DNA of 64,000 nt, from the sequence record NC_106721.1; one strand, 5' to 3'. The stretch is from Escherichia phage EC148. Under the pieces are notes generated by a model. The model searched no databases. It worked only from the letters and a program-made list of their open reading frames with translations, and was not told the DNA's origin. A program made the translations under genes and the position numbers. Every line of letters starts with the position of its first letter. Position 1 is the first letter of the stretch. Positions 501 to 42,754 of the stretch are shown here, piece after piece.

Positions 501-529
501 ATTATACAGAGAATTAAGCATAATAGCAA
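501..529 (-). promoter_or_regulatory. sigma70-type promoter (minus strand) for the lipoprotein gene
   Basis: Read on minus strand: -35 TTGCTA, 17-nt spacer, -10 TATAAT, with A-rich upstream and extended TG. Confidence 0.6.
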
Positions 530-679
530 ATGAATTTTTAATAAATTTACTTATTGTGTAGGCCACCTGGAGGCTACCAACCCCACGGCTGACAAAGAAG
601 TTTGCGAGACCTCTCTTAAGTGCCAGAATAGACCCGCCGATCTATCGGAACCTACATAATAAGTAAACTTTATAGTGTC

Positions 680-799
680 ATTCTAGACAGGACTCGAACC
701 TGTTATCACTTGTGCGGACTTACGAGAACCATTCTTTCACTCGAATCGAACGAGCTTCTGCCCTCGCCAAGCTGGTTTCCCCATCAACCACGCTAGAAT
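680..799 (-). ncRNA. tRNA-like element, about 120 nt, not resolvable as a canonical tRNA
   Basis: Perfect T-arm ACAGG-TTCGAGT-CCTGT (plus 687-703) and an exact 7-bp acceptor-like pairing between plus 680-686 and 793-799, but 120 nt apart; second T-arm-like motif at plus 739-755. Confidence 0.25.
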
Positions 800-921
800 G
801 TTTGATTGTTTTCAGTGCAAGAGTCCGAGTCTTGGACACGACCGCTTCGCAAGTACATAGGCAGCTTATCATGAGTCAGCACTTCCGAATTGCTAGCTCC
901 GTGTTCTGCACTGAAATTTTA

Positions 922-1269
922 TTAGTTTAACCGTAAAGTATTATCTACTTCACCATTAATTGTTCGGCATTCTTCTGGGATTGCTGGTGTAGCCTTATAT
1001 TCCCACCATTCAGAACCGTCGTATTCACCACGTTCTAACCAAGTTCCATCAGTAAACCACACGTTACCATAAAGCAATTGCCCACCGAAACCAGAATCAT
1101 ATTTAAAGTCTAGATTATTTAGAAAATCTTCAATATCTTTTTCTGTATAACCTACGGGTAACACCCAAACTTCTTTGTCCCCATAATAACCGAATTCTAT
1201 CTTAATACACTTAACTTCAGAATTAATATTCTTTAAGGCAAGTAACAATTCTTCTTTAGCATTAATCAT
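922..1269 (-). CDS. hypothetical protein, 115 aa, Trp/Tyr/Gly-rich
   Basis: Intact ORF between tRNA genes on the same strand as the tRNAs. Confidence 0.5.
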   Translation of the reverse strand: MINAKEELLLALKNINSEVKCIKIEFGYYGDKEVWVLPVGYTEKDIEDFLNNLDFKYDSGFGGQLLYGNVWFTDGTWLERGEYDGSEWWEYKATPAIPEECRTINGEVDNTLRLN

Positions 1270-1295
1270 AGCATATTTCTCGTACTAGTTTAATT

Positions 1296-1372
1296 TGGCG
1301 CGACCGATGGGATTTGAACCCACATTCCCTCCCGTGACAGGGGAGTACCATTACCAAGCCAGCCCCGGTCGC
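1296..1372 (-). tRNA. tRNA-Asp (anticodon GUC)
   Basis: Acceptor GCGACCG/CGGTCGC perfect, T-loop TTCAAAT, anticodon stem CTCCC/GGGAG with loop CTGTCAC, CCA encoded. Confidence 0.65.
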
Positions 1373-1381
1373 ATAATTCAT

Positions 1382-1567
1382 TTACTCAGCTTTGAGTTTT
1401 TCAATAGCTGCATTAAGTTCTTTAAGAAACTTTTTTCGTACATTAAGACGGTTGAGACTTACTAGTATATCATGTTTAAGTTCTTCGATGTATTTCTTCT
1501 CAACTTCAATATTGTTGATAGTGCTATCACGATGAACTTCTAGCTGTGCAATTACATTCTTGGACAT
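1382..1567 (-). CDS. hypothetical small coiled-coil protein, 61 aa
   Basis: ORF with charged heptad-like sequence; co-oriented with neighbours. Confidence 0.4.
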   Translation of the reverse strand: MSKNVIAQLEVHRDSTINNIEVEKKYIEELKHDILVSLNRLNVRKKFLKELNAAIEKLKAE

Positions 1568-1669
1568 GCTTGTTTCCTCAGTTATTAATGAAAATGGTAT
1601 CTGTGACTGAATTCGATGTCAGCAATGATAGCTGGTTGGCTACCGGTTTACTTAACTCTACACAGAATT

Positions 1670-1753
1670 TGGCGGGCCGTGTAGGATTCGAACCTACGTT
1701 GTCTTTCGACATGGATTAACAGTCCACCGCCAAACCGCTTGGCTAACGACCCT
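1670..1753 (-). tRNA. tRNA with anticodon GUU (Asn-type) and a 13-nt variable arm
   Basis: Acceptor GGGTCGT/ACGGCCC, D-stem GCCA/TGGC, anticodon stem GTGGA/TCCAT with loop CTGTTAA, variable arm GTCGAAAGACAAC, T-arm GTAGG-TTCGAAT-CCTAC, CCA encoded; 84 nt. Confidence 0.5.
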
Positions 1754-1904
1754 AAATTTATATTGCTGACTAGGATTTTCACCTAGACGGAGTTAGCACC
1801 GTAGCGTGTAGCGGCATACCTCTCCAAACCGTGCCTCATCTTTCAATTACGGAGACAGTGTTCCTACGCGTGCCTGAATTGATTTAACAACTCTTTCAGC
1901 AAAT

Positions 1905-1980
1905 TGGACGACCGCATGAGATTTGAACTCACATAAAAAGGATTTGCAATCCTTCGCCTAAGCCATTCAGCCAACGGTCG
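1905..1980 (-). tRNA. tRNA-Cys (anticodon GCA)
   Basis: Acceptor with one G-U pair, T-loop TTCAAAT, anticodon stem AAGGA/TCCTT with loop TTGCAAA, CCA encoded. Confidence 0.65.
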
Positions 1981-2028
1981 ATTTATCTTGTTCTGTCATG
2001 TTGCTTCTCCAGTTCAATTTATGTAATT

Positions 2029-2057
2029 ATTATACAGAACTTTTGGAAACTAAGCAA
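2029..2057 (-). promoter_or_regulatory. sigma70-type promoter (minus) upstream of tRNA-Cys
   Basis: -35 TTGCTT / 17 nt / -10 TATAAT on minus strand. Confidence 0.55.
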
Positions 2058-2337
2058 CTACATTTTTTAAAAATTTGATGCCTTTCTTTTTCTTCTTATA
2101 TTTCCACGTTAAGGGATTCTGTCGATTATGAACGCTTGAGATCTTTGTCTCGTCAAAGTTCTTCAATATCATGTAATCACAGGATAATTGTTCTAATGGA
2201 ATGTGATCACCGTCAAAAGCGTATACATAAGGCTGTTGACTAGCACGATAATGATAGACTTTGTTAATTCTACGCTTCAGCAACTTATCCGCGCAGTAAA
2301 TAAAGAAGTTTTCAGGATGCATCAGCAGCTCCCTCAA
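2050..2337 (-). CDS. hypothetical protein, 95 aa
   Basis: ORF co-oriented with the tRNA island. Confidence 0.4.
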   Translation of the reverse strand: MRELLMHPENFFIYCADKLLKRRINKVYHYRASQQPYVYAFDGDHIPLEQLSCDYMILKNFDETKISSVHNRQNPLTWKYKKKKKGIKFLKNVVA

Positions 2338-2339
2338 TT

Positions 2340-2414
2340 TGGTGCACCCTGTTCGTATCGAACGAACCTCTCAAGCTCTTCAGGCAAGCGCTAATCCATC
2401 TCAGCTAAAGGTGC
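2340..2414 (-). tRNA. tRNA-like, anticodon not resolved (possibly CCU); may be degenerate
   Basis: Acceptor pairing plus 2344-2350 with 2408-2414 and perfect T-arm GTTCG-TTCGATA-CGAAC, CCA encoded; only a 4/5-bp anticodon stem could be found. Confidence 0.35.
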
Positions 2415-2420
2415 AAATTT

Positions 2421-2497
2421 TGGCAAACCTACTAGGACTCGAACCTAGACCGTACGGTTTTGGAGACCGACATGCTGTCCAGTAACACTCTAGGAAT
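2421..2497 (-). tRNA. tRNA-Trp (anticodon CCA)
   Basis: T-arm CTAGG-TTCGAGT-CCTAG, anticodon arm CGGT-CTCCAAA-ACCG closely resembling E. coli tRNA-Trp (from memory); acceptor stem has two U-U mismatches; CCA encoded. Confidence 0.5.
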
Positions 2498-2505
2498 GCA
2501 GGAAT

Positions 2506-2582
2506 TGGCGTCCTGTGCGGGGATCGAACCCACAAATCCTACCTTGAAAGGGTAGTGACTTTACCAGTTTGTCTAACAGGAC
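2506..2582 (-). tRNA. tRNA-Glu (anticodon UUC)
   Basis: Perfect acceptor GTCCTGT/ACAGGAC, T-loop TTCGATC, anticodon stem CTACC/GGTAG with loop CTTTCAA, CCA encoded. Confidence 0.7.
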
Positions 2583-2589
2583 TTAAATT

Positions 2590-2680
2590 TGGTGTTGGAT
2601 GATGGAGTCGAACCACCCGAGACCCTTCCGAGTCGGCAGATTTACAGTCTGCTTCGCTACCTCTACGATACTAATCCAAC
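2590..2680 (-). tRNA. tRNA-Tyr (anticodon GUA), about 18-nt variable arm
   Basis: Acceptor GTTGGAT/ATCCAAC perfect, anticodon stem GCAGA/TCTGC with loop CTGTAAA, extended variable arm forming a mini-hairpin, T-arm GGTGG-TTCGACT-CCATC; 91 nt. Confidence 0.6.
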
Positions 2681-2761
2681 ATATTTAAAAGTATTCAAAT
2701 ACTAGTTTAAACACTTTTAGATATGTTTCCAAATTAGATAACTATTATATCAAGTTTTATG

Positions 2762-2800
2762 GCACTGAGCAAGTCAAATTTTAAAGAACTTGCTCAGTGC
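2762..2800. terminator. 12-bp-stem hairpin (possible terminator) just downstream of the TGA-containing ORF
   Basis: GCACTGAGCAAG ... CTTGCTCAGTGC inverted repeat; weak T-run. Confidence 0.4.
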
Positions 2801-2808
2801 TGTATTAG

Positions 2809-3084
2809 TTAGTCGAACTTAGGAGCGACAGTTAAGGAGAATGGAAGTTCGAAAACTTCTTCGCCCTCATCACTAACAGTAATTACACGACCTTTAAGTT
2901 CAGACATTGAAATATCAATATCAGCTTTTGCATCTGGAGCCATGCCAGCTTCAATACATTTAGCTTTAACTTCCGGCAGAAGTTCTACATCGTAGAAATA
3001 AAGCCATTCAATCTCACCTTCCCAGCCTTCTCAGGATTTACAGATTGCACTTTCAATACCAGTTGCTATAACACGATTTTGCAT
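2809..3084 (-). CDS. hypothetical protein interrupted by an in-frame TGA at codon 18 (readthrough candidate or disrupted gene)
   Basis: ATG at plus 3084-3082 with GAAGGAG Shine-Dalgarno 7 nt upstream; frame reads MQNRVIATGIESAICKS-TGA-EGWEGEIEWLYFYDVELL... to TAA at plus 2811-2809. Confidence 0.35.
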
Positions 3085-3174
3085 TCGTTAACTCCTTCAT
3101 CAATTTATATAACTATTATACCAGAAATTTAAAGCAAAAGGCAAGTACATTTTTAAAAATTCTGTTTGGAGGAG

Positions 3175-3381
3175 CTAAACTCCAGATTCTTCAGCTAAGT
3201 CTAGGCTAATAAGAGATATAGCCATAATTGCTGCTCCGTGTTCTCTTTCTCCTGTCTCTTTAGCTAGGGTTATAATATCAAGAAATTGCTTATGAAAGTC
3301 TGCAACCTCTTGAGTCATACCTGCCTCAGCAATCATGCCTTTAAGCATGAAACGTTGTGCGGTAATTTCGGGATTAGCCAT
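3175..3381 (-). CDS. hypothetical protein, 68 aa
   Basis: ORF; start overlaps stop of upstream small ORF (ATGGCTAA arrangement). Confidence 0.45.
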   Translation of the reverse strand: MANPEITAQRFMLKGMIAEAGMTQEVADFHKQFLDIITLAKETGEREHGAAIMAISLISLDLAEESGV

Positions 3382-3541
3382 GTTGTTTCTCCAGTTTCAT
3401 GTTTAATAGTCTACAAATAAAATCAATGTCTTCATCTGTGCCTAGATCTCTATCTTCAAGAGTTGCCTTGAAGTTTTTCGTCAATTCCATGAGGATAACT
3501 TCTCTAGAACGACGTGTTGGCGGAGGTGGATGTCTATACAT
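3374..3541 (-). CDS. hypothetical small protein, 55 aa (MYRHPPPPTRR...)
   Basis: Hand-translated; AAGGAAA Shine-Dalgarno upstream; below the length cut-off of the supplied ORF track. Confidence 0.35.
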   Translation of the reverse strand: MYRHPPPPTRRSREVILMELTKNFKATLEDRDLGTDEDIDFICRLLNMKLEKQHG

Positions 3542-3556
3542 CTTATTTCCTTAAGT

Positions 3557-3633
3557 TGGTAGGGGTGGTGGGATTCGAACCCACAAAACCTGAATTTTAA
3601 GTCCAGTACCTATACCAATTCGATTACACCCCC
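3557..3633 (-). tRNA. tRNA with anticodon UAA (Leu-type anticodon) but short 5-nt variable arm
   Basis: Acceptor GGGGGTG/CACCCCT (one G-U), T-arm GTGGG-TTCGAAT-CCCAC, anticodon stem CTGGA/TTCAG with loop CTTAAAA, CCA encoded; D-stem poorly defined. Confidence 0.5.
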
Positions 3634-3734
3634 ATGTAATCAGTTTATTAGTTGATACATATTATAGCCTAGTGAAAATCCTACTACTAGTCCCACAAAC
3701 CAACCAATATAATAATCTTTTAGTTTCACAGGTA

Positions 3735-3920
3735 TTATCCTCGTTCAATATCTAGGGAAACACCGCAGTTAGGATTAATACCTGTACCGTTGCAATTTGA
3801 ACAAATCCAGATATTGCAAAAAGTATCTCCTGCTTCTGCATCAGAACTTTCACCAATTCCCCTACACTCAGGGCAGGCACATTCTTCTAGCTCTTGCTTG
3901 AGTTCTTGAAACTTGGACAT
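3735..3920 (-). CDS. Cys-rich zinc-ribbon-like small protein, 61 aa
   Basis: Paired Cys motifs CACPEC ... CSNCNG. Confidence 0.45.
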   Translation of the reverse strand: MSKFQELKQELEECACPECRGIGESSDAEAGDTFCNIWICSNCNGTGINPNCGVSLDIERG

Positions 3921-3929
3921 ATAGTCTCC

Positions 3930-4121
3930 TTAGTCAATTACTTTTGAGGCTTCAAGGGAGTCGATATAGTATACGTTTTCTACCATAATCATATAATCTG
4001 CCACTTTATCCATAGCTTGGGCCTCAGAGGTAGCTCTGGCTAACCTATATCCTTTTTTATATTCATCCGGGTATTCTCTATCTTGAATAAATACAACATA
4101 AACTATGTATAATTCCACTTG
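3930..4121 (-). CDS. hypothetical protein; start uncertain (possible GTG start)
   Basis: The supplied ORF 3930-4265 runs through tRNA genes at 4139-4216, so the true start must lie below about 4130. Confidence 0.3.
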   Translation of the reverse strand, partial: QVELYIVYVVFIQDREYPDEYKKGYRLARATSEAQAMDKVADYMIMVENVYYIDSLEASKVID

Positions 4122-4138
4122 TAATCCCCTAATTAAGT

Positions 4139-4216
4139 TGGTGGCTCCCCGAGGATTCGAACCTACGTACCTTCCGGTTATGAGCCGGGTGCTCATACCA
4201 TATGAGCTTGAGAACC
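4139..4216 (-). tRNA. tRNA, anticodon CAU (Met/Ile2-type)
   Basis: Acceptor with two G-U pairs, D-stem GCTC/GAGC, anticodon stem CCGG/CCGG with loop CTCATAA, weak 3-bp T-stem around TTCGAAT, CCA encoded. Confidence 0.5.
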
Positions 4217-4222
4217 AGAATT

Positions 4223-4311
4223 TGGCGGAAGAAGTGGGAATCGAACCCACAAGGCTATATTTCAAACCGACAGATTAGCAATCTGCTGCAATACCGTTAT
4301 GCTATTCTTCC
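4223..4311 (-). tRNA. tRNA-Ser (anticodon GCU), type II
   Basis: Perfect acceptor GGAAGAA/TTCTTCC, anticodon stem GCAGA/TCTGT with loop TTGCTAA, long variable arm, T-arm GTGGG-TTCGATT-CCCAC; 89 nt. Confidence 0.65.
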
Positions 4312-4326
4312 GAATTTATAAGATAT

Positions 4327-4355
4327 ATTATATTAGAAATTTAGCTTCATAGCAA
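4327..4355 (-). promoter_or_regulatory. sigma70-type promoter (minus) driving the tRNA-Ser / tRNA-CAU cluster
   Basis: -35 TTGCTA / 17 nt / -10 TATAAT on minus strand, directly upstream of the tRNA at 4223-4311. Confidence 0.6.
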
Positions 4356-4851
4356 GAAAATTTTTCAAGTTTTCGGTAGACATCTCATCCACATCTACGG
4401 GAGAAACAAAGCCGTTTAATTTTCTAGCAAATTTTTCACCCGCAGGATCGTTGTCTCCGACAGCTACCAATTTAAAAGGTAATAATTTCAGTTGCTTTAA
4501 TAACGCTTTTCCTGGAGAAGAACCTAACATTGCCAGGGCTGGATAACCAGCGTTATGTAGCGCAACTGCCTTAAATACAGATTCAGCGATCAATACTACT
4601 TTTTCATCTCCATTGAGAGTTTCTAGTCCCCATACACACTGGGTAGTAGAATAAGTAAAATATTTAGCTTCAAAGGGACACTTACCATGACCTTTTGGAG
4701 CAGAAGGATTATACGTCTGATAGCCTCGCAACATCCCGGAGAAGTCATACAACGGGACTGTTAGCCATCCTTCCGGACTTAACCAGCAATGATATTTATC
4801 TGTATCAAATCCTCTGGATAAGAGGTGCTGTGTTAGCTCATCAACATTCAT
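4333..4851 (-). CDS. Toprim-domain protein (DnaG-like catalytic core, no zinc finger)
   Basis: Conserved Glu in VVLIAESVF and DxD in LVAVGDNDPAGEKFARKL; start set at MNVDEL because the promoter at 4882-4910 lies inside the longer ORF. Confidence 0.55.
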   Translation of the reverse strand: MNVDELTQHLLSRGFDTDKYHCWLSPEGWLTVPLYDFSGMLRGYQTYNPSAPKGHGKCPFEAKYFTYSTTQCVWGLETLNGDEKVVLIAESVFKAVALHNAGYPALAMLGSSPGKALLKQLKLLPFKLVAVGDNDPAGEKFARKLNGFVSPVDVDEMSTENLKNFLAMKLNF

Positions 4852-4881
4852 ATTTGGTTCCTCTCTCAAATTTATAGATAT

Positions 4882-4910
4882 ATTATACAGAGAATTTAGC
4901 ATTCAAGCAA
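4882..4910 (-). promoter_or_regulatory. sigma70-type promoter (minus) for the Toprim-protein gene
   Basis: -35 TTGCTT / 17 nt / -10 TATAAT on minus strand. Confidence 0.55.
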
Positions 4911-5025
4911 TCAAATTTTTTAACTTTTTAGAGGAAAATCATAGGGCACTTAAGGGTAGCAGATAAGTGGGGAGGACCAAAATTTGTGACCCCACTAAAA
5001 ATCCGGGGGCAATTTTTAAAGACCC

Positions 5026-5054
5026 CTTGACATTTTCGCTGGGGTAGTGTAAAG
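5026..5054 (+). promoter_or_regulatory. sigma70-type promoter for the plus-strand three-gene cassette
   Basis: -35 TTGACA (5026-5031), 17-nt spacer, -10 TAAAGT (5049-5054). Confidence 0.55.
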
Positions 5055-5117
5055 TATATGTTATGGATGAGTGATCAAAGAGACACACATTTTCTATATA
5101 CTAGGAGGTGTCAAAAT

Positions 5118-6107
5118 ATGACAGAAGAAGTAGCTAAGAGTCCTGAGACCGTCGCTAGCGTTGCAGCAGAACTGCACAGTCACGAGGAATCAGATAAGAA
5201 AAAGTGGGAGAAGGTCAGAGCCTACGAAGAAAAACATCGTGAACACGATGATGAAGAAGAAGATGACGATGATGAACATTGTCATAAATATGGAAAACAT
5301 AAAATGCAAGAACCAGTAAACGTATTCACTAGTGGCTTCCCTGGCCTACTGGGTGGTTACCCAGCAAACGCAGGTGCTTTCGGTGGTGAAGGTATGGGAC
5401 TATTCGGAGCTATCCTAATCGGTGCTCTATTAACCGGCGGATTCGGTGGTTTCGGTGGATTCGGTGGACGTGGTGTAGTTGGTGAAGGTACCGCAGTTGA
5501 TGCAGTACTTCAGAACCAAGATACCGCTAGTATTCTAGCAGCTATCAACACTACTCGTACAGAGGCTAACCAGGGTACTGGAGCTGTTTTAAGCGCAGTT
5601 AACAATGGTTTTAGCCAGACAACCCAAAACCAGAGCCGTGATACTCAGTCTGTACTAACTACGATCTACGGTACAGGTGCTAATCTGTCTAATCAGATCT
5701 GCCAGGAAACTCGCAACGTTATTCAGGGTCAGTTCGATCTTTCTCGCCAGATTGATCAATCTTTCGCAGCTAACCAGATAGCTCGTGCACAAGATAAGTT
5801 TGATTCTGCACAGATCGCTTTCCAGCAGACTTTACAAACTAATAACCAGTTTGCCGCTGTTCAGGCTCAGATGTGTGCTAACCAGAACTCTCTGGAACGT
5901 CAGATCGCTGAATGTTGCTGTGAACTTCAGACTGCGATCGCTGGTGTAACTACTGCGCGTATCCAGGATGAGTTAGACGCATGTCGCCTACGTGAAGCAA
6001 TCGCTGCGGGTAGCGGTGCTAACGGTCAGGTAATTAATCAAATCGCTTTAAGTCTTGGTGCTATCACTCAGACTCTGGCTGGTCTGCAGGCTAAACTGCC
6101 GGCTTAA
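5118..6107 (+). CDS. hypothetical low-complexity protein: polyacidic N-terminus, Gly-zipper hydrophobic segment, Gln/Asn/Thr-rich C-terminal region with Cys cluster
   Basis: Strong RBS TAGGAGGTG before ATG 5118; promoter at 5026-5054; translation-optimised codon choice; no recognisable catalytic motif. Confidence 0.6.
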   Translation: MTEEVAKSPETVASVAAELHSHEESDKKKWEKVRAYEEKHREHDDEEEDDDDEHCHKYGKHKMQEPVNVFTSGFPGLLGGYPANAGAFGGEGMGLFGAILIGALLTGGFGGFGGFGGRGVVGEGTAVDAVLQNQDTASILAAINTTRTEANQGTGAVLSAVNNGFSQTTQNQSRDTQSVLTTIYGTGANLSNQICQETRNVIQGQFDLSRQIDQSFAANQIARAQDKFDSAQIAFQQTLQTNNQFAAVQAQMCANQNSLERQIAECCCELQTAIAGVTTARIQDELDACRLREAIAAGSGANGQVINQIALSLGAITQTLAGLQAKLPA

Positions 6108-6128
6108 TATTAAGGGGAGGAGCCCATT

Positions 6129-6545
6129 ATGAGTAAATATGGTTTTGTAAATAACGGACTTAATCAAAGTATGGGCTCCCAGCAGCCCATTCCGGGTCTG
6201 GATAACCCCTACTTACAACAGTTGCAACAGCGTTTAGCAGAAGCGCAACAGATGCAGCAACAACTCCAGCAAAACCCTGGAAGTGTGAGTCCTATGCAAA
6301 TGATGCAGCAAATGAGCGGGCAGTCGCAAATGCCTCAACAAATGCAGCAACAGGTGCCTCAGCAGCAAGTTCAGCAACAAACCCAACAACCGCAGGTTTC
6401 TGCGGAAGGACAGGCAGTACTAGCCCTTTTCGAAGACTTCGCAAAGACAGAGGATGGGAAACAGCTTGTATCACTTATGGGTAAGTTTAATAGCTTCTGC
6501 CAAAGCCAAGTTGCAAAAGCTCAAAATGGGGGTAGTAACTCCTAA
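6129..6545 (+). CDS. hypothetical Gln-rich protein, 138 aa
   Basis: RBS AAGGGGAGG; Q-rich repeats (PQQMQQQ...). Confidence 0.6.
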   Translation: MSKYGFVNNGLNQSMGSQQPIPGLDNPYLQQLQQRLAEAQQMQQQLQQNPGSVSPMQMMQQMSGQSQMPQQMQQQVPQQQVQQQTQQPQVSAEGQAVLALFEDFAKTEDGKQLVSLMGKFNSFCQSQVAKAQNGGSNS

Positions 6546-6554
6546 GGAGGAAAT

Positions 6555-6749
6555 ATGTGTTGCAGAAAATCTGTTTCGTGCTGCCCAGTGCCTGTAGCAC
6601 GTTGTTGCTCTCCAGCAATGTTTACGCAAATACCGGCGTTCAATCCCTTTGCCTTTAAGCCTACTCTTATCCTGCCCCCTAGAGTAGATTTTCAGTCAAG
6701 ATTGGCCTCCCGTATGGGTGGTTGCTGTACACCGAGAGTATGGTTCTAA
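6555..6749 (+). CDS. hypothetical Cys-rich small protein, 64 aa
   Basis: RBS AAGGAGG; 8 Cys including CC pairs; followed by terminator hairpins. Confidence 0.55.
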   Translation: MCCRKSVSCCPVPVARCCSPAMFTQIPAFNPFAFKPTLILPPRVDFQSRLASRMGGCCTPRVWF

Positions 6750-6761
6750 ACCAAAAACAAA

Positions 6762-6795
6762 AGCCCCTGCCGAAAGGTAAGGGGCTTTTTCTTTT
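6762..6795 (+). terminator. rho-independent terminator ending the plus-strand cassette
   Basis: AGCCCCT...AGGGGCT hairpin followed by TTTTTCTTTT. Confidence 0.65.
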
Positions 6796-6799
6796 GCCT

Positions 6800-6840
6800 T
6801 AAATACAGAAAAGCCCGCGCTCTCGTAGGAAACGCGGGCT
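6800..6840 (-). terminator. rho-independent terminator for the SPFH gene (convergent with the previous one)
   Basis: GCCCGCG...CGCGGGC hairpin followed on minus strand by TTTTCTGTATTT. Confidence 0.6.
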
Positions 6841-17842: not shown

Positions 17843-17873
17843 TGATTTTCCTCTTTCTCACTATTTCAGGAAT

Positions 17874-17902
17874 ATTATAGCAAATCTGGTAGCGATTAGC
17901 AA
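17874..17902 (-). promoter_or_regulatory. sigma70-type promoter (minus) upstream of nrdB
   Basis: -35 TTGCTA / 17 nt / -10 TATAAT on minus strand, between nrdA terminator and nrdB start. Confidence 0.6.
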
Positions 17903-17909
17903 GTAAAAT

Positions 17910-17940
17910 TTCAAAGAAAAAGGAGACCCGAAGATCTCCT
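17910..17940 (-). terminator. terminator downstream of nrdA (minus)
   Basis: AGGAGA...TCTCCT hairpin then TTTTCTTTG on minus strand. Confidence 0.55.
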
Positions 17941-21406: not shown

Positions 21407-21470
21407 TCCTATAGTGTACTTCGCTAACAGAGGATCAACAAAAAGATCTTGTTTATCAACTTACAAATAT

Positions 21471-21499
21471 ATTATACCAATATATACAGTAAAAAGCAA
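21471..21499 (-). promoter_or_regulatory. sigma70-type promoter (minus) upstream of phoH
   Basis: -35 TTGCTT / 17 nt / -10 TATAAT on minus strand; divergent from the nrdD promoter. Confidence 0.55.
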
Positions 21500-21691
21500 C
21501 TACAATTTTAAATAAGCCTATGATATTGCATTTAAATAAAAAATTTGCTTGCTTTTAACGTGAGATGTGTGATACTAGATAATCATTTTATATCGCGTGC
21601 ACGAGTGCGTGATTATACAATTTTTAATAGAGATTGGCAAATAAAATTTTTTGACTCAGATCATGTTACAGAACTTTATAGTAAAATATTG

Positions 21692-23624: not shown

Positions 23625-23666
23625 GCTAATCAGCCGGGTTGCTAGTCGACCTGGCTTTTATTTTAT

Positions 23667-23695
23667 TTGCTTTCAGCCAAAAATTTATATATAAT
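23667..23695 (+). promoter_or_regulatory. sigma70-type promoter (plus)
   Basis: -35 TTGCTT / 17 nt / -10 TATAAT, followed by conserved AT-rich leader ending in GAGAGGAG RBS. Confidence 0.6.
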
Positions 23696-23723
23696 AGATT
23701 TATAAATTTGAGAGGAGAAAGAT

Positions 23724-25984: not shown

Positions 25985-25986
25985 AT

Positions 25987-26415: not shown

Positions 26416-26424
26416 GGAGGCAGA

Positions 26425-26817: not shown

Positions 26818-26908
26818 TTTTTATTAGCTGAACTCTGATTACCGAGTCATTTTGGCTCGGTTTTATCCGTACTCAAGACCAATGATAGCACCATCCGGAA
26901 AATTTTAC

Positions 26909-26937
26909 TTGCAGGATGCCCAAAATCTTGATATAAT
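26909..26937 (+). promoter_or_regulatory. sigma70-type promoter (plus) heading the long leader upstream of the helicase-like gene
   Basis: -35 TTGCAG / 17 nt / -10 TATAAT. Confidence 0.5.
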
Positions 26938-27436
26938 ATTTATATTGAATTGAGAGACATTAGTAAAAATTGATTTTGCTAATTTTTCTTGTTTACAATC
27001 CGCGATACGGAACAGTTAGGCTGCCCCATTAAGGGTTGTTTTAACTGTTACGTGTTAGTTTTTAAACAAATAGTTAATAGAATACTTAGCGATCTGCGTC
27101 CCATAGGAACCCTGGTAAGGCCTCGAAGCAACCTAGTATGAGGTGGTTGTGAAGTGAGATGGGAGGAGTGAAAAACTCCGAGACGTGATTCTGTAAGTTA
27201 TATTGCATCTAGTATGAGCTAGTATATGAAGCATTAGGTGAGCAAATCTGGCTTAGCGGCCATCCTCAAGGATTTGTGCGATATAGCAAAGCAGCAGCGC
27301 AGCGTGAAAGTGGAAGTTGCCACCCCCCTTCAGTATTTGCGATTAATTTGTTGAGAAATTGACAGTAACAGTTGTTCTATTCTTTCTGAATAGTCCTAAA
27401 GAAAACTTATTTTATTTCCAACACAGGAGTATTGTT

Positions 27437-30226: not shown

Positions 30227-30443
30227 AAAATGGGAAACAAGGAAGTTCCCAGTAAAAGAACGTAAAGTTCCTGTTTACGACACTTCGGAAAAGCTATGTA
30301 GGGTGGTACCGCATAGATTAGCTGGCATCCCTAATATATCCGAATGGTTACTTAAACAACGGAAAACAAACGTGTCTCTTCGCATCGGCTTTGAGTTAGA
30401 TAAAGTCTATGCTGAACTTGCTTCTTTGCTCAAGGAATCGTAA
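30201..30443 (+). CDS. hypothetical protein, 80 aa
   Basis: ORF. Confidence 0.4.
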   Translation: MLEMTVKNKKWETRKFPVKERKVPVYDTSEKLCRVVPHRLAGIPNISEWLLKQRKTNVSLRIGFELDKVYAELASLLKES

Positions 30444-30451
30444 AAATTTAT

Positions 30452-30480
30452 TTGCATAGTGCAAAAAATTTCTGTATAAT
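30452..30480 (+). promoter_or_regulatory. sigma70-type promoter (plus)
   Basis: -35 TTGCAT / 17 nt / -10 TATAAT. Confidence 0.6.
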
Positions 30481-30511
30481 AGATTCATAAATTTGAGAGA
30501 GGAGTTTAAAT

Positions 30512-31216: not shown

Positions 31217-31460
31217 GCTAACAGATTTGCTTAAAGATGGGGAAGTAAAAACTCTATATCGTAGAAGCTGGGATAATGACAATAATGGCTTAGTGTTACT
31301 AACTTTAGACGCTGACTCAGATGTAGTTACCCAACATACCTGGGTAGCTGGTAATTATCCCTATAGTGAGGTTGTTACGTTAACAGTATGCGAAGCTATT
31401 GCTGACGATTGGGAGATTGCCAGCATTGATGATATGCTTGCTGTTGGCCTGGTGGAGTAA
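31185..31460 (+). CDS. hypothetical protein
   Basis: ORF overlapping the end of the previous gene; start uncertain. Confidence 0.35.
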   Translation: MIKKKENAVSKLTDLLKDGEVKTLYRRSWDNDNNGLVLLTLDADSDVVTQHTWVAGNYPYSEVVTLTVCEAIADDWEIASIDDMLAVGLVE

Positions 31461-31477
31461 CTACAGAAAAATTTCAG

Positions 31478-31506
31478 TTGCTTAATCCTATAATTCTTGA
31501 TATAAT
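31478..31506 (+). promoter_or_regulatory. sigma70-type promoter (plus)
   Basis: -35 TTGCTT / 17 nt / -10 TATAAT. Confidence 0.6.
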
Positions 31507-31563
31507 ATTCTCATAGTTTGAAAGAACTATTCTGTTTAATTCTTAATTAAGGAAATATAAAAT

Positions 31564-31974: not shown

Positions 31975-32010
31975 TTTTTAGATAAATCCACCAACAAAAG
32001 GAACACAGTT

Positions 32011-32307
32011 ATGACCAAAGCTGAAATTATCGCACAATGTGAAAAATTTGGTGAGTTTTATCTTCATTACGAGAAACTTCGTCAGAAAGGAACCACGTAC
32101 CTTCAGGGTACGATGGAATTTGATCCAGCCCAAGATAAATATCTGGCTGAGCGTATTAAACGTGAACGTATTCGTAAAGCGAAAGATGATGAGATCCTTG
32201 TCTTCTCTCGTACTAATGATAGCTTCCGTTTTATTCCTGTCGAGAAAGTCCGTCGTGTGACTAGCCTCCAATCAGAGTTAGATCGTGCTTCTCCAGTAGG
32301 CCGATAA
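32011..32307 (+). CDS. hypothetical protein
   Basis: ORF followed by terminator 32318-32342. Confidence 0.45.
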   Translation: MTKAEIIAQCEKFGEFYLHYEKLRQKGTTYLQGTMEFDPAQDKYLAERIKRERIRKAKDDEILVFSRTNDSFRFIPVEKVRRVTSLQSELDRASPVGR

Positions 32308-32317
32308 GAAACCAATT

Positions 32318-32342
32318 AGCCCCTATATGGGGCTTTTTGTGT
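32318..32342 (+). terminator. rho-independent terminator (plus)
   Basis: AGCCCCTATATGGGGCT hairpin followed by TTTTTG. Confidence 0.65.
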
Positions 32343-32357
32343 ATTTGGGATATGTAA

Positions 32358-32666
32358 ATGAGCGAACAGGTAAATCAAAACTATGAAGGACACGTTGATG
32401 ACCAGTCCATCATACTTTGGGAGAAGGAGGGGGAACAAGTAAGATTAACAGTATCTGAATTTCGTGGGAATCTATACATGGGTATTCGTTACTGGCTTCT
32501 TGATATTAATGATGAATGGTTTCCAACGAAATCTGGCTTCTCTTTTCCTTACACCCTAGAAACAACATCACAGCTTTTCTATGCGTTTACACAGATTCTT
32601 AGCGAATCTGAGGTTTTACATGAAGTACAGAAACGAGCTGAAGAACTCAAAGCCAAGAATGCCTAG
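32358..32666 (+). CDS. hypothetical protein
   Basis: ORF followed by hairpin GCCAAGAA...TTCTTGGC. Confidence 0.45.
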   Translation: MSEQVNQNYEGHVDDQSIILWEKEGEQVRLTVSEFRGNLYMGIRYWLLDINDEWFPTKSGFSFPYTLETTSQLFYAFTQILSESEVLHEVQKRAEELKAKNA

Positions 32667-32693
32667 TTCTTGGCTTTTTCTTTATAAATGTAT

Positions 32694-32722
32694 TTGCTTT
32701 CAACTCAGTTTTGTTATATAAT
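32694..32722 (+). promoter_or_regulatory. sigma70-type promoter (plus)
   Basis: -35 TTGCTT / 17 nt / -10 TATAAT. Confidence 0.6.
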
Positions 32723-32752
32723 ATTTATATAAATTAATGAGAGGGTTGCAAA

Positions 32753-33025
32753 GTGAAAAAGATAAGTATAAGTACACTTAAACCTTTCCCGTACATCGGA
32801 CAGCCTCTTATACTTATGTGGGAGGGGAAGATTAATGGAGAAAAGTATACTAAAACTAGAAGTGGGTATAAGCTGATTTCACTTCATTACGAAAAAGAAG
32901 TATTAGTAGCTGAAATATACTCTCCGTTGTCAGATAGGCTAGTAAAAACTACATATTTGCATCTTTGCAAAAATTATACATGGCACGGATCCACTAGACA
33001 ACCCACATACTATGAGGCAGAATAA
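32753..33025 (+). CDS. hypothetical protein
   Basis: ORF downstream of promoter 32694-32722. Confidence 0.45.
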   Translation: MKKISISTLKPFPYIGQPLILMWEGKINGEKYTKTRSGYKLISLHYEKEVLVAEIYSPLSDRLVKTTYLHLCKNYTWHGSTRQPTYYEAE

Positions 33026-33997
33026 ATGACCAATGTAAAAGACTTTATTAAACGTTGCCAAGAAGCATATTATCAAGGTATGTCTTTAATCTCTGATGAA
33101 GAGTATGATTGCCTGGTAAAACGCTTTCCGTTAGAAGAAGAGATCGGACCTAAGGGCGATATTCCACATCTGTATCGTATGTATTCTTTACAGAAAGTTT
33201 ATTATAATCGTGGAGATAAACCTCCGTTTAACCCGTTAGGTCAAGTAGAAACTGATAAGTTAGATGGTTGTGCAATTTCTCTGTTATATATTAATGGCGA
33301 ATTTGTTCAAGCACTAACTCGTGGTAATGGTATTCTAGGGAATGATGTCACAAGCAACGTAAGATTGCTGAATATCCCTAAAAAGATTTCCCAAAAAGTA
33401 CCTACTCAAATCACTGGTGAAGTTCTAATTACAAAAGAAGTAGAAAATAAACGTAACTTTGCCTCTGGTGCTATTAACCTCAAAGATAGTGATGATTTTG
33501 TACAACGTATCGGAGAAGGTGGTTTAATCTTCGTTGCATATGGTATCCAGTGTTCTGCTGAATCTGTAGGTATTACAGAAGCATATTTAAAAGATATGCT
33601 TTGGCTGGAGAATGAGAACTTCTTAACAGTTGTTAATGTGCGTTCCTTCTTTAAATGGATTCCGACGGATGGTAAAGTTGTTCGTATTAATGACAACAAC
33701 AAATTCTTCCGTGAAGGCTGGACTAATAAATTCCCTCGTGGAGCATTCGCTATTAAAGAGGATGAAGAAGGCGAGGTTACAACTCTTACTAAAGTTGAAT
33801 GGCAGGTAGGGGCTTCTGGTAAAGTAACTCCAGTTGGTTATTTCGAACCGGTAATTATTGATGATGCTACAATTGTTAAAGCGACTCTTAATAACGTTGA
33901 TTATATTAACTCTCTTGATCTAGAGATCGGTTGCCAGATTCGAGTGATTCGTGCTGGTGGTGTAATCCCGTGCATAGTAGAGCGAGTATACGAGTAA
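33026..33997 (+). CDS. NAD-dependent DNA ligase, adenylation-domain subunit
   Basis: KxDG active-site motif (TDKLDGCAIS) and LigA-type nucleotidyltransferase/OB region. Confidence 0.8.
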   Translation: MTNVKDFIKRCQEAYYQGMSLISDEEYDCLVKRFPLEEEIGPKGDIPHLYRMYSLQKVYYNRGDKPPFNPLGQVETDKLDGCAISLLYINGEFVQALTRGNGILGNDVTSNVRLLNIPKKISQKVPTQITGEVLITKEVENKRNFASGAINLKDSDDFVQRIGEGGLIFVAYGIQCSAESVGITEAYLKDMLWLENENFLTVVNVRSFFKWIPTDGKVVRINDNNKFFREGWTNKFPRGAFAIKEDEEGEVTTLTKVEWQVGASGKVTPVGYFEPVIIDDATIVKATLNNVDYINSLDLEIGCQIRVIRAGGVIPCIVERVYE

Positions 33998-34140
33998 TAC
34001 ATAACCCTTTGCTACCCATCTACCATATCGGAATTATAAAGTGGTTATTGACATTTTCGCCGCTTAGGTATATACTAGTATCATTCAGTTGAGGGATAGA
34101 AAGTTATGGCGAGGGTAAGCAAAGTTAGTTAAAATTGTAG

Positions 34141-34169
34141 TTGCTAAATGCTTAAATACTTGCTATAAT
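34141..34169 (+). promoter_or_regulatory. sigma70-type promoter (plus) between the two ligase genes
   Basis: -35 TTGCTA / 17 nt / -10 TATAAT. Confidence 0.6.
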
Positions 34170-34196
34170 ATTTATATAAATTGATAAGGAAGAAAT

Positions 34197-37285: not shown

Positions 37286-38172
37286 GTAGAATAACAGAAC
37301 TACTTGATCTGAAAGGCATTGAATATAAAGACACAGGTGGGGACATCCTCATCTGTTGTCTCAATCCAGATCATGACGATAAACACCCAAGTTTGCGTAT
37401 TGATCCTGAAACAGGTATTATGCACTGCTTGAGTTGTGGCTTCGGTAAAGGTATACCGAGCATTTACCATTATTTTAATGAGACTCAGTACCGACAGTCT
37501 CCAAGACTATCGCAGGTACGTAAAAAGATTTCAGAGATTAGGAATGGATCTACAAATCTTGCAATTCCTGAATCTGCTTACCTTTTCGAAGGTGATTTCC
37601 GAGGTATAAGTTCTAAGACCTTGAAGAAATACTTTGCTTTCCAACACCAAGCAGACTGGGAAGGCAGAATTGTATTCCCAATCACAGATGCTGTTGGACG
37701 CAATATCCTATTTTTGGGTCGTTCTATAAACAGTTCTGCCCCTCCTAAATACTTAGTAAAACCAAAACAAGTTTCACCACCGATTTTCCCTGTACGATAT
37801 AATACTCCAGTTCTTATTCTAGTTGAAGGTATCTTTGATATGCTGAACCTAGAGGATAATGGTATAGACTATGCTTCTTGCTGCTTTGGTACACATCAGT
37901 TTACTTCAGATAACATTGCAGATAAGTTTAGCCCTTATATTATTGCTGGTGTAAAAGTTGTTGTTATCTTACTAGATAATGATGCTTCTGGTAATAAAGC
38001 TGCACAAGCGTTGGCCAAGCTAATTCGTACAAAAACGCGTTTAACACCTGTAGTGGCTAACTTTCTTCTACCCGAAGGTAAAGACCCTGGTGACTTAAAT
38101 AAAGAAGAAATTGATATGTTAGCAAAACGTATTGAAATTTTAGTTGCTGAATCGCTTAAAGATTTGGTATAA
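37282..38172 (+). CDS. DNA primase (zinc-finger plus Toprim)
   Basis: CHC2-type zinc finger (CCLNPDHDDKHP...HCLSCG), Toprim Glu (ILVEGIFD) and DxD (LLDNDASG). Confidence 0.8.
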   Translation: MSRITELLDLKGIEYKDTGGDILICCLNPDHDDKHPSLRIDPETGIMHCLSCGFGKGIPSIYHYFNETQYRQSPRLSQVRKKISEIRNGSTNLAIPESAYLFEGDFRGISSKTLKKYFAFQHQADWEGRIVFPITDAVGRNILFLGRSINSSAPPKYLVKPKQVSPPIFPVRYNTPVLILVEGIFDMLNLEDNGIDYASCCFGTHQFTSDNIADKFSPYIIAGVKVVVILLDNDASGNKAAQALAKLIRTKTRLTPVVANFLLPEGKDPGDLNKEEIDMLAKRIEILVAESLKDLV

Positions 38173-38234
38173 TATATTGGTAAGTTAGAGAAGAAACACT
38201 GAAGTTATACTTACTTACCAAGAGGAGATTAAAT

Positions 38235-40802: not shown

Positions 40803-41292
40803 TTTCAAATTGCCCGTCTATGCGTTACGGGCGTTTGTATCAATTGAGCAAGAAGGTGATTATTCCGTAATTACAACAAGATATAATAAATATGTGCTAG
40901 ATAACAGGAAGTTGCCTGGCACGTTTTCTCAACGTAGGCTCATTCTATTTGAGAAACGGAAAGAATTACCGTACAAGCTCTATCCTATTAGAGGTAGAAT
41001 ATCAATGTTGTCCCAATTAGTTGGGTCAAAGCGTAGCCAATTTATAGATTCTGATGGAAATCTTATTAATTGGAAGAAAACTACGTTCTATGATGTTGTT
41101 ACCTCTAAAGTTTTGAATTCAGCTAGAATTTATAACGGAAAATACCAATGCTATGTAGCTAAAGTTCCATACCCATTTGTATTATCCTATGTTCCAGCTT
41201 ATATAAGCTATATTCTGGTAAATAATAGCCCTGTTATTTATCAAGTCCATCAAGAGGAGCCTGAAATTCCTAGACTTAGAATAAAATTATGA
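40795..41292 (+). CDS. hypothetical protein, 165 aa
   Basis: ORF between polymerase and helicase. Confidence 0.45.
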   Translation: MLDFKLPVYALRAFVSIEQEGDYSVITTRYNKYVLDNRKLPGTFSQRRLILFEKRKELPYKLYPIRGRISMLSQLVGSKRSQFIDSDGNLINWKKTTFYDVVTSKVLNSARIYNGKYQCYVAKVPYPFVLSYVPAYISYILVNNSPVIYQVHQEEPEIPRLRIKL

Positions 41293-42641
41293 AGGTTGTT
41301 ATATCTAATAAAGCCTATTTCAAGCCCGATGATGAACTTTGGGATTATTGTAGTAAGCAAACCACTTATCACATAGAGACAATGACTAGTAAATACCCTA
41401 TTATGTATAAGAATAGTGGTGTTGTTGCTAAAGAGATTAAGTGGATTCCTATCACGCGTCTGGATTTATTAGATGCTAAAGGAGTAAAATACGAATTAGT
41501 AGATAAACGTACATTAGCTCCGGTAGATATACCAAAACCTAAGTTCAAGCTGCGTGAAGAAGACCAGCTCCCAATATATGAAGAGTGCGATGATACCTGT
41601 ATTATTAATGGTAAGCCTGGGTTTGGTAAAACTATCCTAGCCCTTGCACTTGCGTATAAATTTGGCCAGAAAACTTTGGTAATCTGTACGAATACATCCA
41701 TTCGTGAAATGTGGGCAGCAGAAGTTCGTAAATGGTTTGGGTTTGAACCGGGCATTATAGGTTCTGGGAAATACAATATTGATCCACCAATTGTAGTCAG
41801 TAATATTCAAACAGTGAATAAACATGCGAATAATCTTTCTAAAGTATTCGGTACTGTTATAGTTGATGAAGTTCACCATTGTGTGGCTACAACTTTCACC
41901 AACTTCCTAGAAATATCATGTGCTCGCTATAAGATTGGACTATCTGGAACATTAAAACGGAAAGATGGTCTACAAGTTATGTTCAAAGATTTCTTTGGAT
42001 ATAAGATCTTTAGCCCACCGGTTAATAATACTGTTGCACCTACAATCCATAGGTACTCCGTGCCTGTTGAGTTATCAGGAAACCAAAACGTACCATGGGC
42101 ATTACGTGCTAATGATGTGTATAACCATCCTGAATATCGAGAGACTATTATAAACTTAGCACACTTATACGTGAATATGGGGCATAAAGTACTCATTGTA
42201 AGTGACAGAACAGAGTTAATCCAAACAGTACTAGAAGCTCTCGCACAGCGTGGTGTTACAACATATGAAATTATAGGGGCAACCCACTTGGATGACCGAT
42301 TAAAAATTCAGGAAAATATAGCAAAAGGTGGGCCTTGTGTACTTGCAGCAGCTCAAAGTATCTTCTCTGAAGGTATTTCCCTTAATGAGCTATCTTGTTT
42401 AATAATGGGGAGTCTCATTAATAATGAATCTCTCATTGAACAGCTTGCAGGACGTGTTCAACGTATTGTCGATGGTAAACTCGACCCTATTGTTGTAGAT
42501 CTAATTATGAAAGGTGGCACTGGACTAAGACAGGCTTCTGGACGTATGGCAGTATATCGTAACAACGGGTGGAAAACTATTACCATGACTCCTGAGAAAG
42601 CAGTTCAATTAGCTAAAATTGCATTTGGCAACAGCTCATAA
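41289..42641 (+). CDS. SF2 DNA helicase
   Basis: Walker A GKPGFGKT and DEVH box (VDEVHH). Confidence 0.8.
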   Translation: MKVVISNKAYFKPDDELWDYCSKQTTYHIETMTSKYPIMYKNSGVVAKEIKWIPITRLDLLDAKGVKYELVDKRTLAPVDIPKPKFKLREEDQLPIYEECDDTCIINGKPGFGKTILALALAYKFGQKTLVICTNTSIREMWAAEVRKWFGFEPGIIGSGKYNIDPPIVVSNIQTVNKHANNLSKVFGTVIVDEVHHCVATTFTNFLEISCARYKIGLSGTLKRKDGLQVMFKDFFGYKIFSPPVNNTVAPTIHRYSVPVELSGNQNVPWALRANDVYNHPEYRETIINLAHLYVNMGHKVLIVSDRTELIQTVLEALAQRGVTTYEIIGATHLDDRLKIQENIAKGGPCVLAAAQSIFSEGISLNELSCLIMGSLINNESLIEQLAGRVQRIVDGKLDPIVVDLIMKGGTGLRQASGRMAVYRNNGWKTITMTPEKAVQLAKIAFGNSS

Positions 42642-42653
42642 ATGATGTATAAT
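42625..42653 (+). promoter_or_regulatory. sigma70-type promoter (plus)
   Basis: -35 TTGGCA / 17 nt / -10 TATAAT. Confidence 0.5.
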
Positions 42654-42724
42654 ATATACATAAATTTGAGAGAGAAAGTTTCGGATTGATAAGAAAGTCC
42701 GAAGCAGAAAAATAAAAATTTTAG

Positions 42725-42754
42725 TTGCTAAATTCTCTCGAAATCTAGTATAAT
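42725..42754 (+). promoter_or_regulatory. sigma70-type promoter (plus)
   Basis: -35 TTGCTA / 18 nt / -10 TATAAT. Confidence 0.55.

Follow-up and report, generated by a model that had tools for sequence, protein, structure and literature searches.

A recurrent promoter-and-leader cassette of Escherichia phage EC148 corresponds to the early promoters of phage T5

Work going back to the early 1980s has mapped, sequenced and dissected the early promoters of bacteriophage T5, and one of them, N25, serves as the standard model of promoter escape and as the basis of commercial 'T5 promoter' vectors. Gentz and Bujard are said to have defined the class in 1985 and to have been the first to report homologies outside the hexamers. 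Here we describe a promoter-plus-leader cassette of ~75 bp that recurs through the early region of Escherichia phage EC148, in a stretch of 64,000 nucleotides of record NC_106721.1 (the window, hereafter, is the whole of this stretch), and we compare it with the T5 promoters and with other repeated phage promoters.

All classes of T5 genes are transcribed by the host sigma-70 RNA polymerase, strong sigma-70 promoters being located ahead of both early and late genes, with an ATATT discriminator common to the early ones (PMC7472727). Primer extension experiments in T5 showed that P15A and Ppol are early in vivo (PMC7472727). In N25, a -35 hexamer TTGctt, a 17-bp spacer and TATAAT are accompanied by an UP element, which is centred at -49, by a further AT-rich, UP-like stretch within the spacer (at -19) and by a 6-bp discriminator with G at -5; the N25 transcript has no C before +30 (PMC12464699). 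Its native initial transcribed sequence (ITS) speeds promoter escape, and altering positions +3..+20 cuts productive RNA ~10-fold; N25 was also compared with lambda PR-type promoters (PMC12464699). The PeSL cassettes of T4-type phages consist of a strong sigma-70-like promoter followed by a stem-loop, and recombination between copies has been shown directly (PMC2839356).

The window is DNA of a T5-like phage, covering the early region and part of the late region. A 6-kb piece of it is 98.9% identical, and a further 24.6-kb piece 99.7% identical, to Escherichia phage T5_ev212, and hundreds more T5-like phages (Tequintavirus, Epseptimavirus) match window pieces at 85-97% identity. It is collinear with the T5 record AY543070 from ~32.3 kb to at least 78 kb, the end of the T5 stretch compared; by extrapolation, it would end near 97 kb of that record. 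It contains part of the tRNA cluster (12 tRNAs, minus strand, 102-7921), both divergent early arms, and minus-strand late genes from ~48.8 kb. The cassettes are on the minus strand on the left and on the plus strand on the right because the two early-gene arms diverge from ~21.5 kb.

We searched the window for the core TTGCW-N18-TATAAT and obtained 19 exact matches, against 0.12 expected from dinucleotide-preserving shuffles; of these, 13 lie in the interval 501-21499 (minus strand) and 6 in the interval 23667-34169 (plus strand). A position weight matrix (PWM) was then applied in two blocks, an upstream one that extends through the -35 hexamer and a downstream one from the 3' spacer to +22, with 16-18 bp of spacer allowed. 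It yielded 23 members between 475 and 42780, 14 on the minus strand and 9 on the plus strand, the four outside the exact core having TTGCCT, TTGCTG, TTGGCA or, for one copy, an 18-bp spacer. Their scores were 45-68 bits (n=23), the runner-up site in the 64-kb window scored 11.7 bits, and the best scores in five Markov-shuffled windows were at most 3 bits. No member of the family was detected by the PWM in the late region (43-64 kb). Each copy is co-oriented with the downstream genes, and together they occupy 22 intergenic boundaries. A previous examination of the letters alone, the sequence-only reading, had proposed that one cassette was used more than 20 times, which agrees with this count; its end points, 501 and 42754, coincide with the final base of the -10 hexamer in the first copy and in the last, respectively. 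The 23 copies are the following, with scores in bits and identities relative to T5.

475..549, minus strand: P13a ortholog; -10 at 501-506; 51 bits; 75/75 positions aligned, 91% identity; ATG 32 nt past the -10, then a 65-amino-acid open reading frame (ORF), tRNA-Pro and tRNA-Met.
2003..2077, minus strand: P14b ortholog; 55 bits; 97% identity; followed by a short T5.070-like ORF and tRNA-Cys.
2718..2792, minus strand: P14a ortholog; 56 bits; 96%; precedes the tRNA-Tyr/Glu/Trp/Phe cluster, with tRNA-Tyr 63 nt downstream; lacks the ribosome-binding site (RBS) tail.
3089..3164, minus strand: P15c ortholog; 64 bits; 97%; 18-bp spacer; canonical TGn extended -10.
4301..4375, minus strand: P15b ortholog; 48 bits; 99%; tRNA-Ser ~15 nt past the -10.
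4856..4930, minus strand: P15a ortholog; 62 bits; 96%.
8693..8767, minus strand: P16-17 ortholog; 68 bits; 61/61 positions identical; upstream of an RNAX-like stable-RNA region and tRNA-Arg.
9366..9440, minus strand: P-D/E33 ortholog; 62.5 bits; 95%; ATG 31 nt past the -10.
10206..10280, minus strand: ortholog of the unnamed T5 promoter 43067-43141; 57 bits; 97%.
11533..11607, minus strand: ortholog of the unnamed T5 promoter 44393-44467; 63 bits; 96%.
13405..13479, minus strand: P-H207 ortholog; 58 bits; 66/66 positions identical.
14200..14274, minus strand: ortholog of the unnamed T5 promoter 46337-46411; 45 bits; 95%.
17848..17922, minus strand: nrdB promoter, ortholog of T5 50061-50135; 53 bits; positions 1-51 98% identical, then divergent where T5 has hegH; terminator hairpin 17941-17920 upstream.
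21445..21519, minus strand: phoH promoter, ortholog of T5 53638-53712; 56 bits; 75/75 identical.
23647..23721, plus strand: ortholog of T5 55708-55782; 53 bits; 95%; after the nrdD terminator (23632-23656).
26889..26963, plus strand: ortholog of T5 58999-59073; 56 bits; 75/75 identical; long leader, upstream of the origin-binding-protein gene.
30432..30506, plus strand: P-N25 ortholog, the classic 'T5 promoter'; 65 bits; positions 38-75 100% identical.
31458..31532, plus strand: P-N26 ortholog; 52 bits; 96%; upstream of D3.
32674..32748, plus strand: ortholog of T5 65284-65358; 55 bits; 70/70 identical; terminator 32649-32677 upstream; an extra 90-amino-acid ORF precedes ligA.
34121..34195, plus strand: P-K28a ortholog; 66 bits; 75/75 identical; upstream of ligB.
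38124..38199, plus strand: DNA polymerase gene promoter, ortholog of T5 70987-71061; 52 bits; 75/75 identical; 18-bp spacer.
42605..42679, plus strand: P31A ortholog, first of a tandem pair; 60.5 bits; 75/75 identical; -35 TTGGCA.
42705..42780, plus strand: P31B ortholog, second of the tandem pair; 62 bits; 75/75 identical; 18-bp spacer.

Comparison with the characterised T5 early promoters, one of the checks proposed in the sequence-only reading, identified the whole family: each of the 23 cassettes could be aligned with a 75-bp feature that AY543070 annotates as a promoter and that occupies the syntenic position. The matched features are P13a, P14a/b, P15a/b/c, P16-17, P-D/E33, P-H207, P-N25, P-N26, P-K28a, P31A/B and nine unnamed ones. 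Genome positions, downstream genes and architecture are alike, identities per promoter are 80-100% (mean ~95%), and only strain-level changes separate the two sets. Thus, in the N25 ortholog the -35 and 5' spacer diverge (TTGCATAGTGCAAAAAAT in the window, TTGCTTTCAGGAAAATTT in T5), and the presence of hegH in T5 accounts for the different leader of the nrdB promoter. For one unnamed T5 promoter, 46937-47011, the window has no equivalent of cassette grade. We take the cassette at 38124..38199 to be Ppol of PMC7472727, judging by its position before pol; the paper gives no coordinates. From these correspondences, the cassettes are very probably the early-class promoters of a T5-like phage, which would be read by unmodified host sigma-70 RNA polymerase. 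Architecture, statistics, orthology and selection were computed here, and the function of the sub-elements (from N25) and the timing (from P15A and Ppol) are taken from the literature.

To describe the cassette, the copies were aligned on both hexamers over 98 columns, with the 99.9th percentile of random-column information content as the cut-off. The 48 columns above it form a block from ~-50 to +20, with the consensus ttAAAAaTttAn-TTGCTw-(17)-..AAatTt.g-TATAAT-ATaT.t-ATAAATT.gagAaa, and the copies are 68-81% A+T over -55..+20. The block starts with an A/T tract, ttAAAAATTTA, at ~-50 to -36 (columns -49 to -37 exceed the cut-off). The sequence-only reading had rightly called this A-rich tract UP-like, as described for N25 (PMC12464699). 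Next come a -35 hexamer TTGCT(A/T) and an AT-rich spacer of 17 bp in 20 copies and 18 bp in three; TATAAT is perfect in 23/23, and in every copy the next base is A. The 6-bp discriminator is AT-rich, with the consensus A-T-A-T-T, and ATAAATT is found at or near +1 in 14/23 copies. The ITS of the family, ATAAATTTGAGAG, includes a ribosome-binding site.

A scripted ORF search found a start codon 27-40 nt past the -10, with the Shine-Dalgarno sequence within the conserved GAGAGG tail, in 13/23 copies. Two further copies (-2029 and -3115) have an ATG at a similar distance by sequence, their ORFs being below the length cut-off of the script, and these 15 bear out the proposal that the leader supplies the RBS. 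Copies that precede tRNA or stable-RNA genes (P14a, P15b, P16-17) have kept the promoter and ATAAATT and lack the RBS tail. Longer leaders are found at phoH, D3, the DNA polymerase gene, the origin-binding protein gene and the tandem pair P31A/P31B.

The N25 ortholog at 30432-30506 fits all the sub-elements described for N25 (PMC12464699). Its last spacer bases, -10, discriminator AGATTC and ITS ATAAATTTGAGAGAGGAGTT are the same as in T5 through +20. With +1 placed at the A of ATAAATT, the discriminator carries its G at -5 and the first C of the transcript is at +30; since both match PMC12464699, they fix the start site of this copy at that A. By analogy with N25, the UP-like tract (~-50 to -36) would recruit the alpha C-terminal domains, transcription would begin at the A of ATAAATT, the ITS ATAAATT(T)GAGAG would favour fast promoter escape, and its 3' part (GAGAGGAG) would act as the Shine-Dalgarno sequence for a start codon at ~+21 to +34. 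The cassettes share near-consensus hexamers, a 17-bp spacer, an UP element near -49 and a 6-bp discriminator with lambda PR and other strong phage early promoters. In contrast to those promoters, the T5 class adds a family-wide ITS and leader, and pairs a perfect -10 with a non-consensus -35, TTGCTW.

The canonical extended -10, TGnTATAAT (TG at -15/-14), is present in 8/23 copies, TGTATAAT (TG at -14/-13) in 9/23, and neither in 6/23. TGTATAAT had been read as an extended -10, but its TG is one base out of register relative to TGnTATAAT. Compared with extended -10 promoters of E. coli, all the window copies also have a good -35, and therefore none depends on an extended -10. We also considered a G-C dinucleotide at -25/-24, often giving TTGCTnnnTGCT, as an extra protein site. 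It is enriched among the copies, but its mismatch rate between orthologs is 0.12, the same as that of the flanks, and it is probably not a specific site.

We compared the window cassettes with their positional orthologs in T5, IrisVonRoten and UTK0009 (65 ortholog pairs). The mismatch rate was 0.00 in the -10 hexamer, 0.018 in the -35 hexamer, 0.035 in the ITS from +1..+10, 0.046 in the discriminator, 0.062 in the A-tract and 0.063 in the 3' spacer. It rose to 0.11-0.13 in the 5' spacer, 0.11 in the ITS from +11..+20, 0.118 further upstream (-65..-52) and 0.18 at +21..+34, with 0.12-0.18 over the flanks. Purifying selection thus falls on the sub-elements that N25 biochemistry has called functional.

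The same divergent layout is found in relatives, with 25 copies in T5 (50 kb examined), 24 in IrisVonRoten, 25 in the Epseptimavirus UTK0009 and ~20, with lower scores, in Klebsiella phage Sugarland. Tequintavirus and Epseptimavirus have kept the cassette family and its layout, and Sugarlandvirus has done so more weakly. Each of the 27/27 T5-like loci of IMG/VR contains, within 20 kb, 9-13 copies that point the same way as rnh, and no cassettes are present in three distant metagenomic contigs (33-39% RNase H identity).

Some observations weigh against taking all the copies as working early promoters. Generic sigma-70 consensus scans showed no enrichment over shuffles (46 found vs 49 expected, 58 vs 57 and 64 vs 63) and are unusable to find or validate the family, for which the evidence rests on the specific cassette and on orthology. 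The exact ATATT is present in only 5/23 discriminators and ATAT in 9/23, which makes ATATT a consensus rather than an invariant feature. The function of the cassettes in the present phage is transferred from T5 orthologs with 80-100% identity, and each copy is presumed to fire like its ortholog. Primer-extension products were obtained in vivo for only 11 of 19 promoters defined in vitro (PMC7472727), and some copies may therefore be weak or silent during infection.

The sequence-only reading had distinguished two flavours of the cassette, one for each orientation. Permutation of the strand labels did not bear this out (p=0.29); the best single column, out of 356 tests, gave p=0.009. Copies in either orientation have the A-tract, TTGCT, TATAAT and the downstream box ATAAATT..GAG. 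Of the 14 minus-strand copies 7 contain TGTATAAT, as do 2 of the 9 plus-strand copies (p=0.23), and TGnTATAAT is present in 4/14 and 4/9, respectively (p=0.66). An ATTTAT discriminator was found in 3/9 plus-strand and 0/14 minus-strand copies (p=0.047, Fisher, uncorrected); we rejected it as a plus-strand flavour, as P11 and P13b of T5, two minus-strand promoters that map immediately beyond the left end of the window, carry the same form and the supposed plus-strand leader. The minus-strand string TATATTATACAGARTTT is indeed enriched: when up to 3 mismatches are allowed, it is found 12 times, where 1.4 matches would be expected. The plus-strand leader ATATTTATATAAATTGAGAGGAG as written has no match even at 3 mismatches. 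It is a composite of real pieces, TATAAT-ATTTAT-ATAAATTGA being present in 3/9 plus-strand copies. There is thus one architecture, not two strand versions.

The cassettes had also been proposed to mark the boundaries of transcription units. They do mark unit starts, but they are not clean boundaries, because a terminator-like hairpin lies upstream of only 3/23 copies (17941-17920, 23632-23656 and 32649-32677). Most units presumably overlap by read-through from upstream promoters. Strong hairpins resembling bidirectional terminators are found at 6811-6841 and 48779-48813, at points of convergent transcription. The former corresponds to the 'efficient bidirectional terminator' annotated in T5, which adjoins a mapped single-strand nick site, and the latter lies at the junction of early and late genes.

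Other explanations of the repeats were considered. The discriminator A-T-A-T-T and the ATAAATT at +1..+7 might be mainly an operator for a phage factor (gpT5.026, D5 or another protein) that would shut off transcription at the early-to-late switch, in which case they would set early timing rather than contribute to strength and escape. The non-cassette promoters P12, nrdD and P-K28b have neither part, nor does the late-region promoter at 57571, and the discriminator and +1..+10 are as constrained as the UP-like tract (mismatch of 0.046 and 0.035). We know of no sequence-specific binder of the discriminator or ITS. gpT5.026 does weaken the contacts of RNA polymerase with the discriminator, where early and late promoters mainly differ, but its effects in vitro are two-fold or less (PMC7472727). 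Furthermore, the native ITS of N25 gives ~10-fold more productive transcription in vitro than an altered ITS with pure E. coli RNA polymerase (PMC12464699), which demonstrates an intrinsic role that needs no phage factor. We therefore regard an operator as unlikely to be the main role of these sequences. It is scarcely credible that the repeats result from AT-rich composition, or that they are copies of a small element that is mobile or was duplicated recently, even with 23 occurrences and a conserved span of ~65 bp. Shuffled sequences yield 0.12 core matches where 19 are observed, and at most 3 bits where the copies score 45-68. Identity at unconstrained columns is 0.29 compared with 0.26 at random, neither terminal repeats nor target duplications accompany the copies, and the position of every copy is conserved between orthologs in phages of three genera. 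In addition, conservation tracks the known contact elements of RNA polymerase.

The cassettes might also double as preferred crossover sites for the insertion, deletion or swapping of the modules that they flank, as the PeSL elements do; the sequence-only reading had raised the possibility of recombination or module-shuffling sites. Paralogous cassettes are ~59% identical over 65 bp, and up to 75% in some pairs, possibly enough for short homology, and PMC2839356 provides a mechanistic precedent. Several indel or replacement edges lie at or inside cassettes: hegH of T5 directly follows the -10 at 17867/17872, the extra 90-amino-acid ORF begins right behind the cassette at 32743, the P15b-P15a module is exchanged in UTK0009 for a 2.2-kb nadR/pnuC segment whose new genes are cassette-flanked, and a NADAR-like ORF (13468-13917) occupies a different cassette-delimited slot in UTK0009, with 60% amino acid identity. 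However, such anecdotes are equally expected without preferred crossover, because inserted genes need promoters and because conserved promoters are the last alignable sequence beside variable genes. Using 67 unique edges from chained blastn of the window against T5, IrisVonRoten and UTK0009, we found no enrichment at cassettes (p=0.2-1.0), although the statistical power of these tests is low. Cassette boundaries were hit in 12/22 cases and non-cassette boundaries in 21/57 (p=0.20). Restricting the comparison to non-cassette intergenic regions of at least 40 bp gave 8/16 (p=1.0), and adding 27 further T5-like genomes over 7-24 kb gave 5/9 against 8/18 (p=0.69). The edges cluster at the outer limits of the cassettes, as a conserved promoter beside variable genes would also produce. 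A test for concerted evolution was negative. Orthologous cassettes stay distinct, with 95% (T5), 96% (IrisVonRoten) and 89% (UTK0009) identity compared with ~70% to the next-best cassette, and paralogs are 29% identical at unconstrained columns compared with 26% at random. These identities mark the copies as old loci, each maintained on its own, rather than as recent duplicates or partners in gene conversion. The stem-loop that defines PeSL is found in only 3/23 copies and is absent from the other 20. The recombination-site idea is thus not supported, and we consider it quite improbable.

The cassettes share several features with the PeSL cassettes of RB49 and phi1 (PMC2839356, PMC4122927). 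Both families comprise many strong early promoters of sigma-70 type, each with an upstream tract that is AT-rich. The copies are intergenic, frequently precede small genes of unknown function and are conserved over ~70-100 bp. The T5-type cassettes differ in that they have no integral stem-loop, mosaic breakpoints are not measurably enriched at them, and none of the copies is chimeric or homogenised. They stand before operons of core replication and nucleotide metabolism as well (nrdB, the pol gene, ligB), and not mainly before ORFans.

Other promoters of the window are distinct from the early-promoter cassette. A second kind of sigma-70 promoter has a consensus -35, TTGACA, no A-tract consensus and no ATAAATT leader, and is not tied to one orientation.

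5027-5055, plus strand: P12, TTGACA-type.
21692-21720, plus strand: nrdD promoter, TTGACA-type.
34048-34076, plus strand: P-K28b, TTGACA-type, 93 bp upstream of the P-K28a cassette.

Two minus-strand half cassettes lack the conserved discriminator and ITS. The one at 21612-21640 has a good A-tract, a TTGCC -35 and TATAAT, and matches the T5-annotated promoter 53776-53850, 141 bp upstream of the phoH cassette. The other, at 20318-20346 (good A-tract, TTGCC, TAGAAT), scores 11.7 bits; it falls within the nrdA gene, at its 5' end, and T5 has no annotation for it. In the late region, a minus-strand promoter at 57541-57599 has the form TTGATA-17-TATAAT, with a terminator hairpin upstream (57648-57624) and a leader containing AAAGAGGAGAAATTAACTATG. 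This promoter and leader are probably T5 P-D/E20 and the pQE 'RBSII'. The string AAAGAGGAGAAATTAACTATG occurs verbatim in 14 publications, apparently as primer or vector sequence.

Variable slots were also noted near the cassettes. The window lacks three HNH homing-endonuclease genes of T5, with clean excision points.

17867/17872: hegH (523 bp), absent relative to T5.
30206/30213: hegI (494 bp), absent relative to T5.
37282/37285: hegJ (526 bp), absent relative to T5.

The hegH site is inside the nrdB promoter cassette, just past the -10; as it lies within that cassette, hegH of T5 has taken over the leader of the nrdB promoter. A 149-amino-acid NADAR/YbiA-like ORF on the minus strand (13468-13917) is absent from T5 and is found at the same place, with 99% identity, in IrisVonRoten; in UTK0009, an ORF with 60% identity is located at 16834-17283, in the neighbouring slot across a promoter cassette. 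The 90-amino-acid ORF at 32753-33025 (plus strand), between its cassette and ligA, looks like the occupant of a variable slot directly behind a promoter. T5 has nothing there, IrisVonRoten and UTK0009 have an unrelated 200-bp gene, and the sole similarity found for the ORF, 31%, is to the gene at the equivalent place in Klebsiella phage Sugarland. Between P15b and P15a (4342-4848), the window has a T5.076-like gene, which carries a note of a Toprim-type sub-domain in T5. In UTK0009 (~5330-7540), this gene is replaced by ~2.2 kb coding for a ribosylnicotinamide kinase, a PnuC-like transporter and a small ORF, bounded on both sides by cassette-type promoters.

The feature itself is already known, as every copy is annotated in the T5 reference record, and our finding, a correct rediscovery of the T5 early promoters, changes little. 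We can imagine that, in the T5-like phages considered here (three genera of Demerecviridae), the cassettes have a second role besides promoter activity and serve as portable 'expression sockets'. These would delimit slots in which accessory genes (homing endonucleases, NADAR-like, nadR/pnuC, ORFans) are exchanged by recombination in the short conserved promoter and leader sequence, a PeSL-like system lacking stem-loops. Alternatively, the discriminator and ITS might be the cis-target of the early-to-late switch, but both ideas are speculative and we hold them to be rather improbable. The additions made here are modest. The copies number 23 and are cleanly set apart from all other sites by a wide gap in score, the supposed strand-specific flavours proved not to be real, and a low-powered test of the recombination-site idea was negative. 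The additions further include a per-element footprint of purifying selection across orthologs and the retention of the design and layout in related genera. The PWM cleanly separates early-class promoters in T5-like genomes, where generic sigma-70 scans fail.

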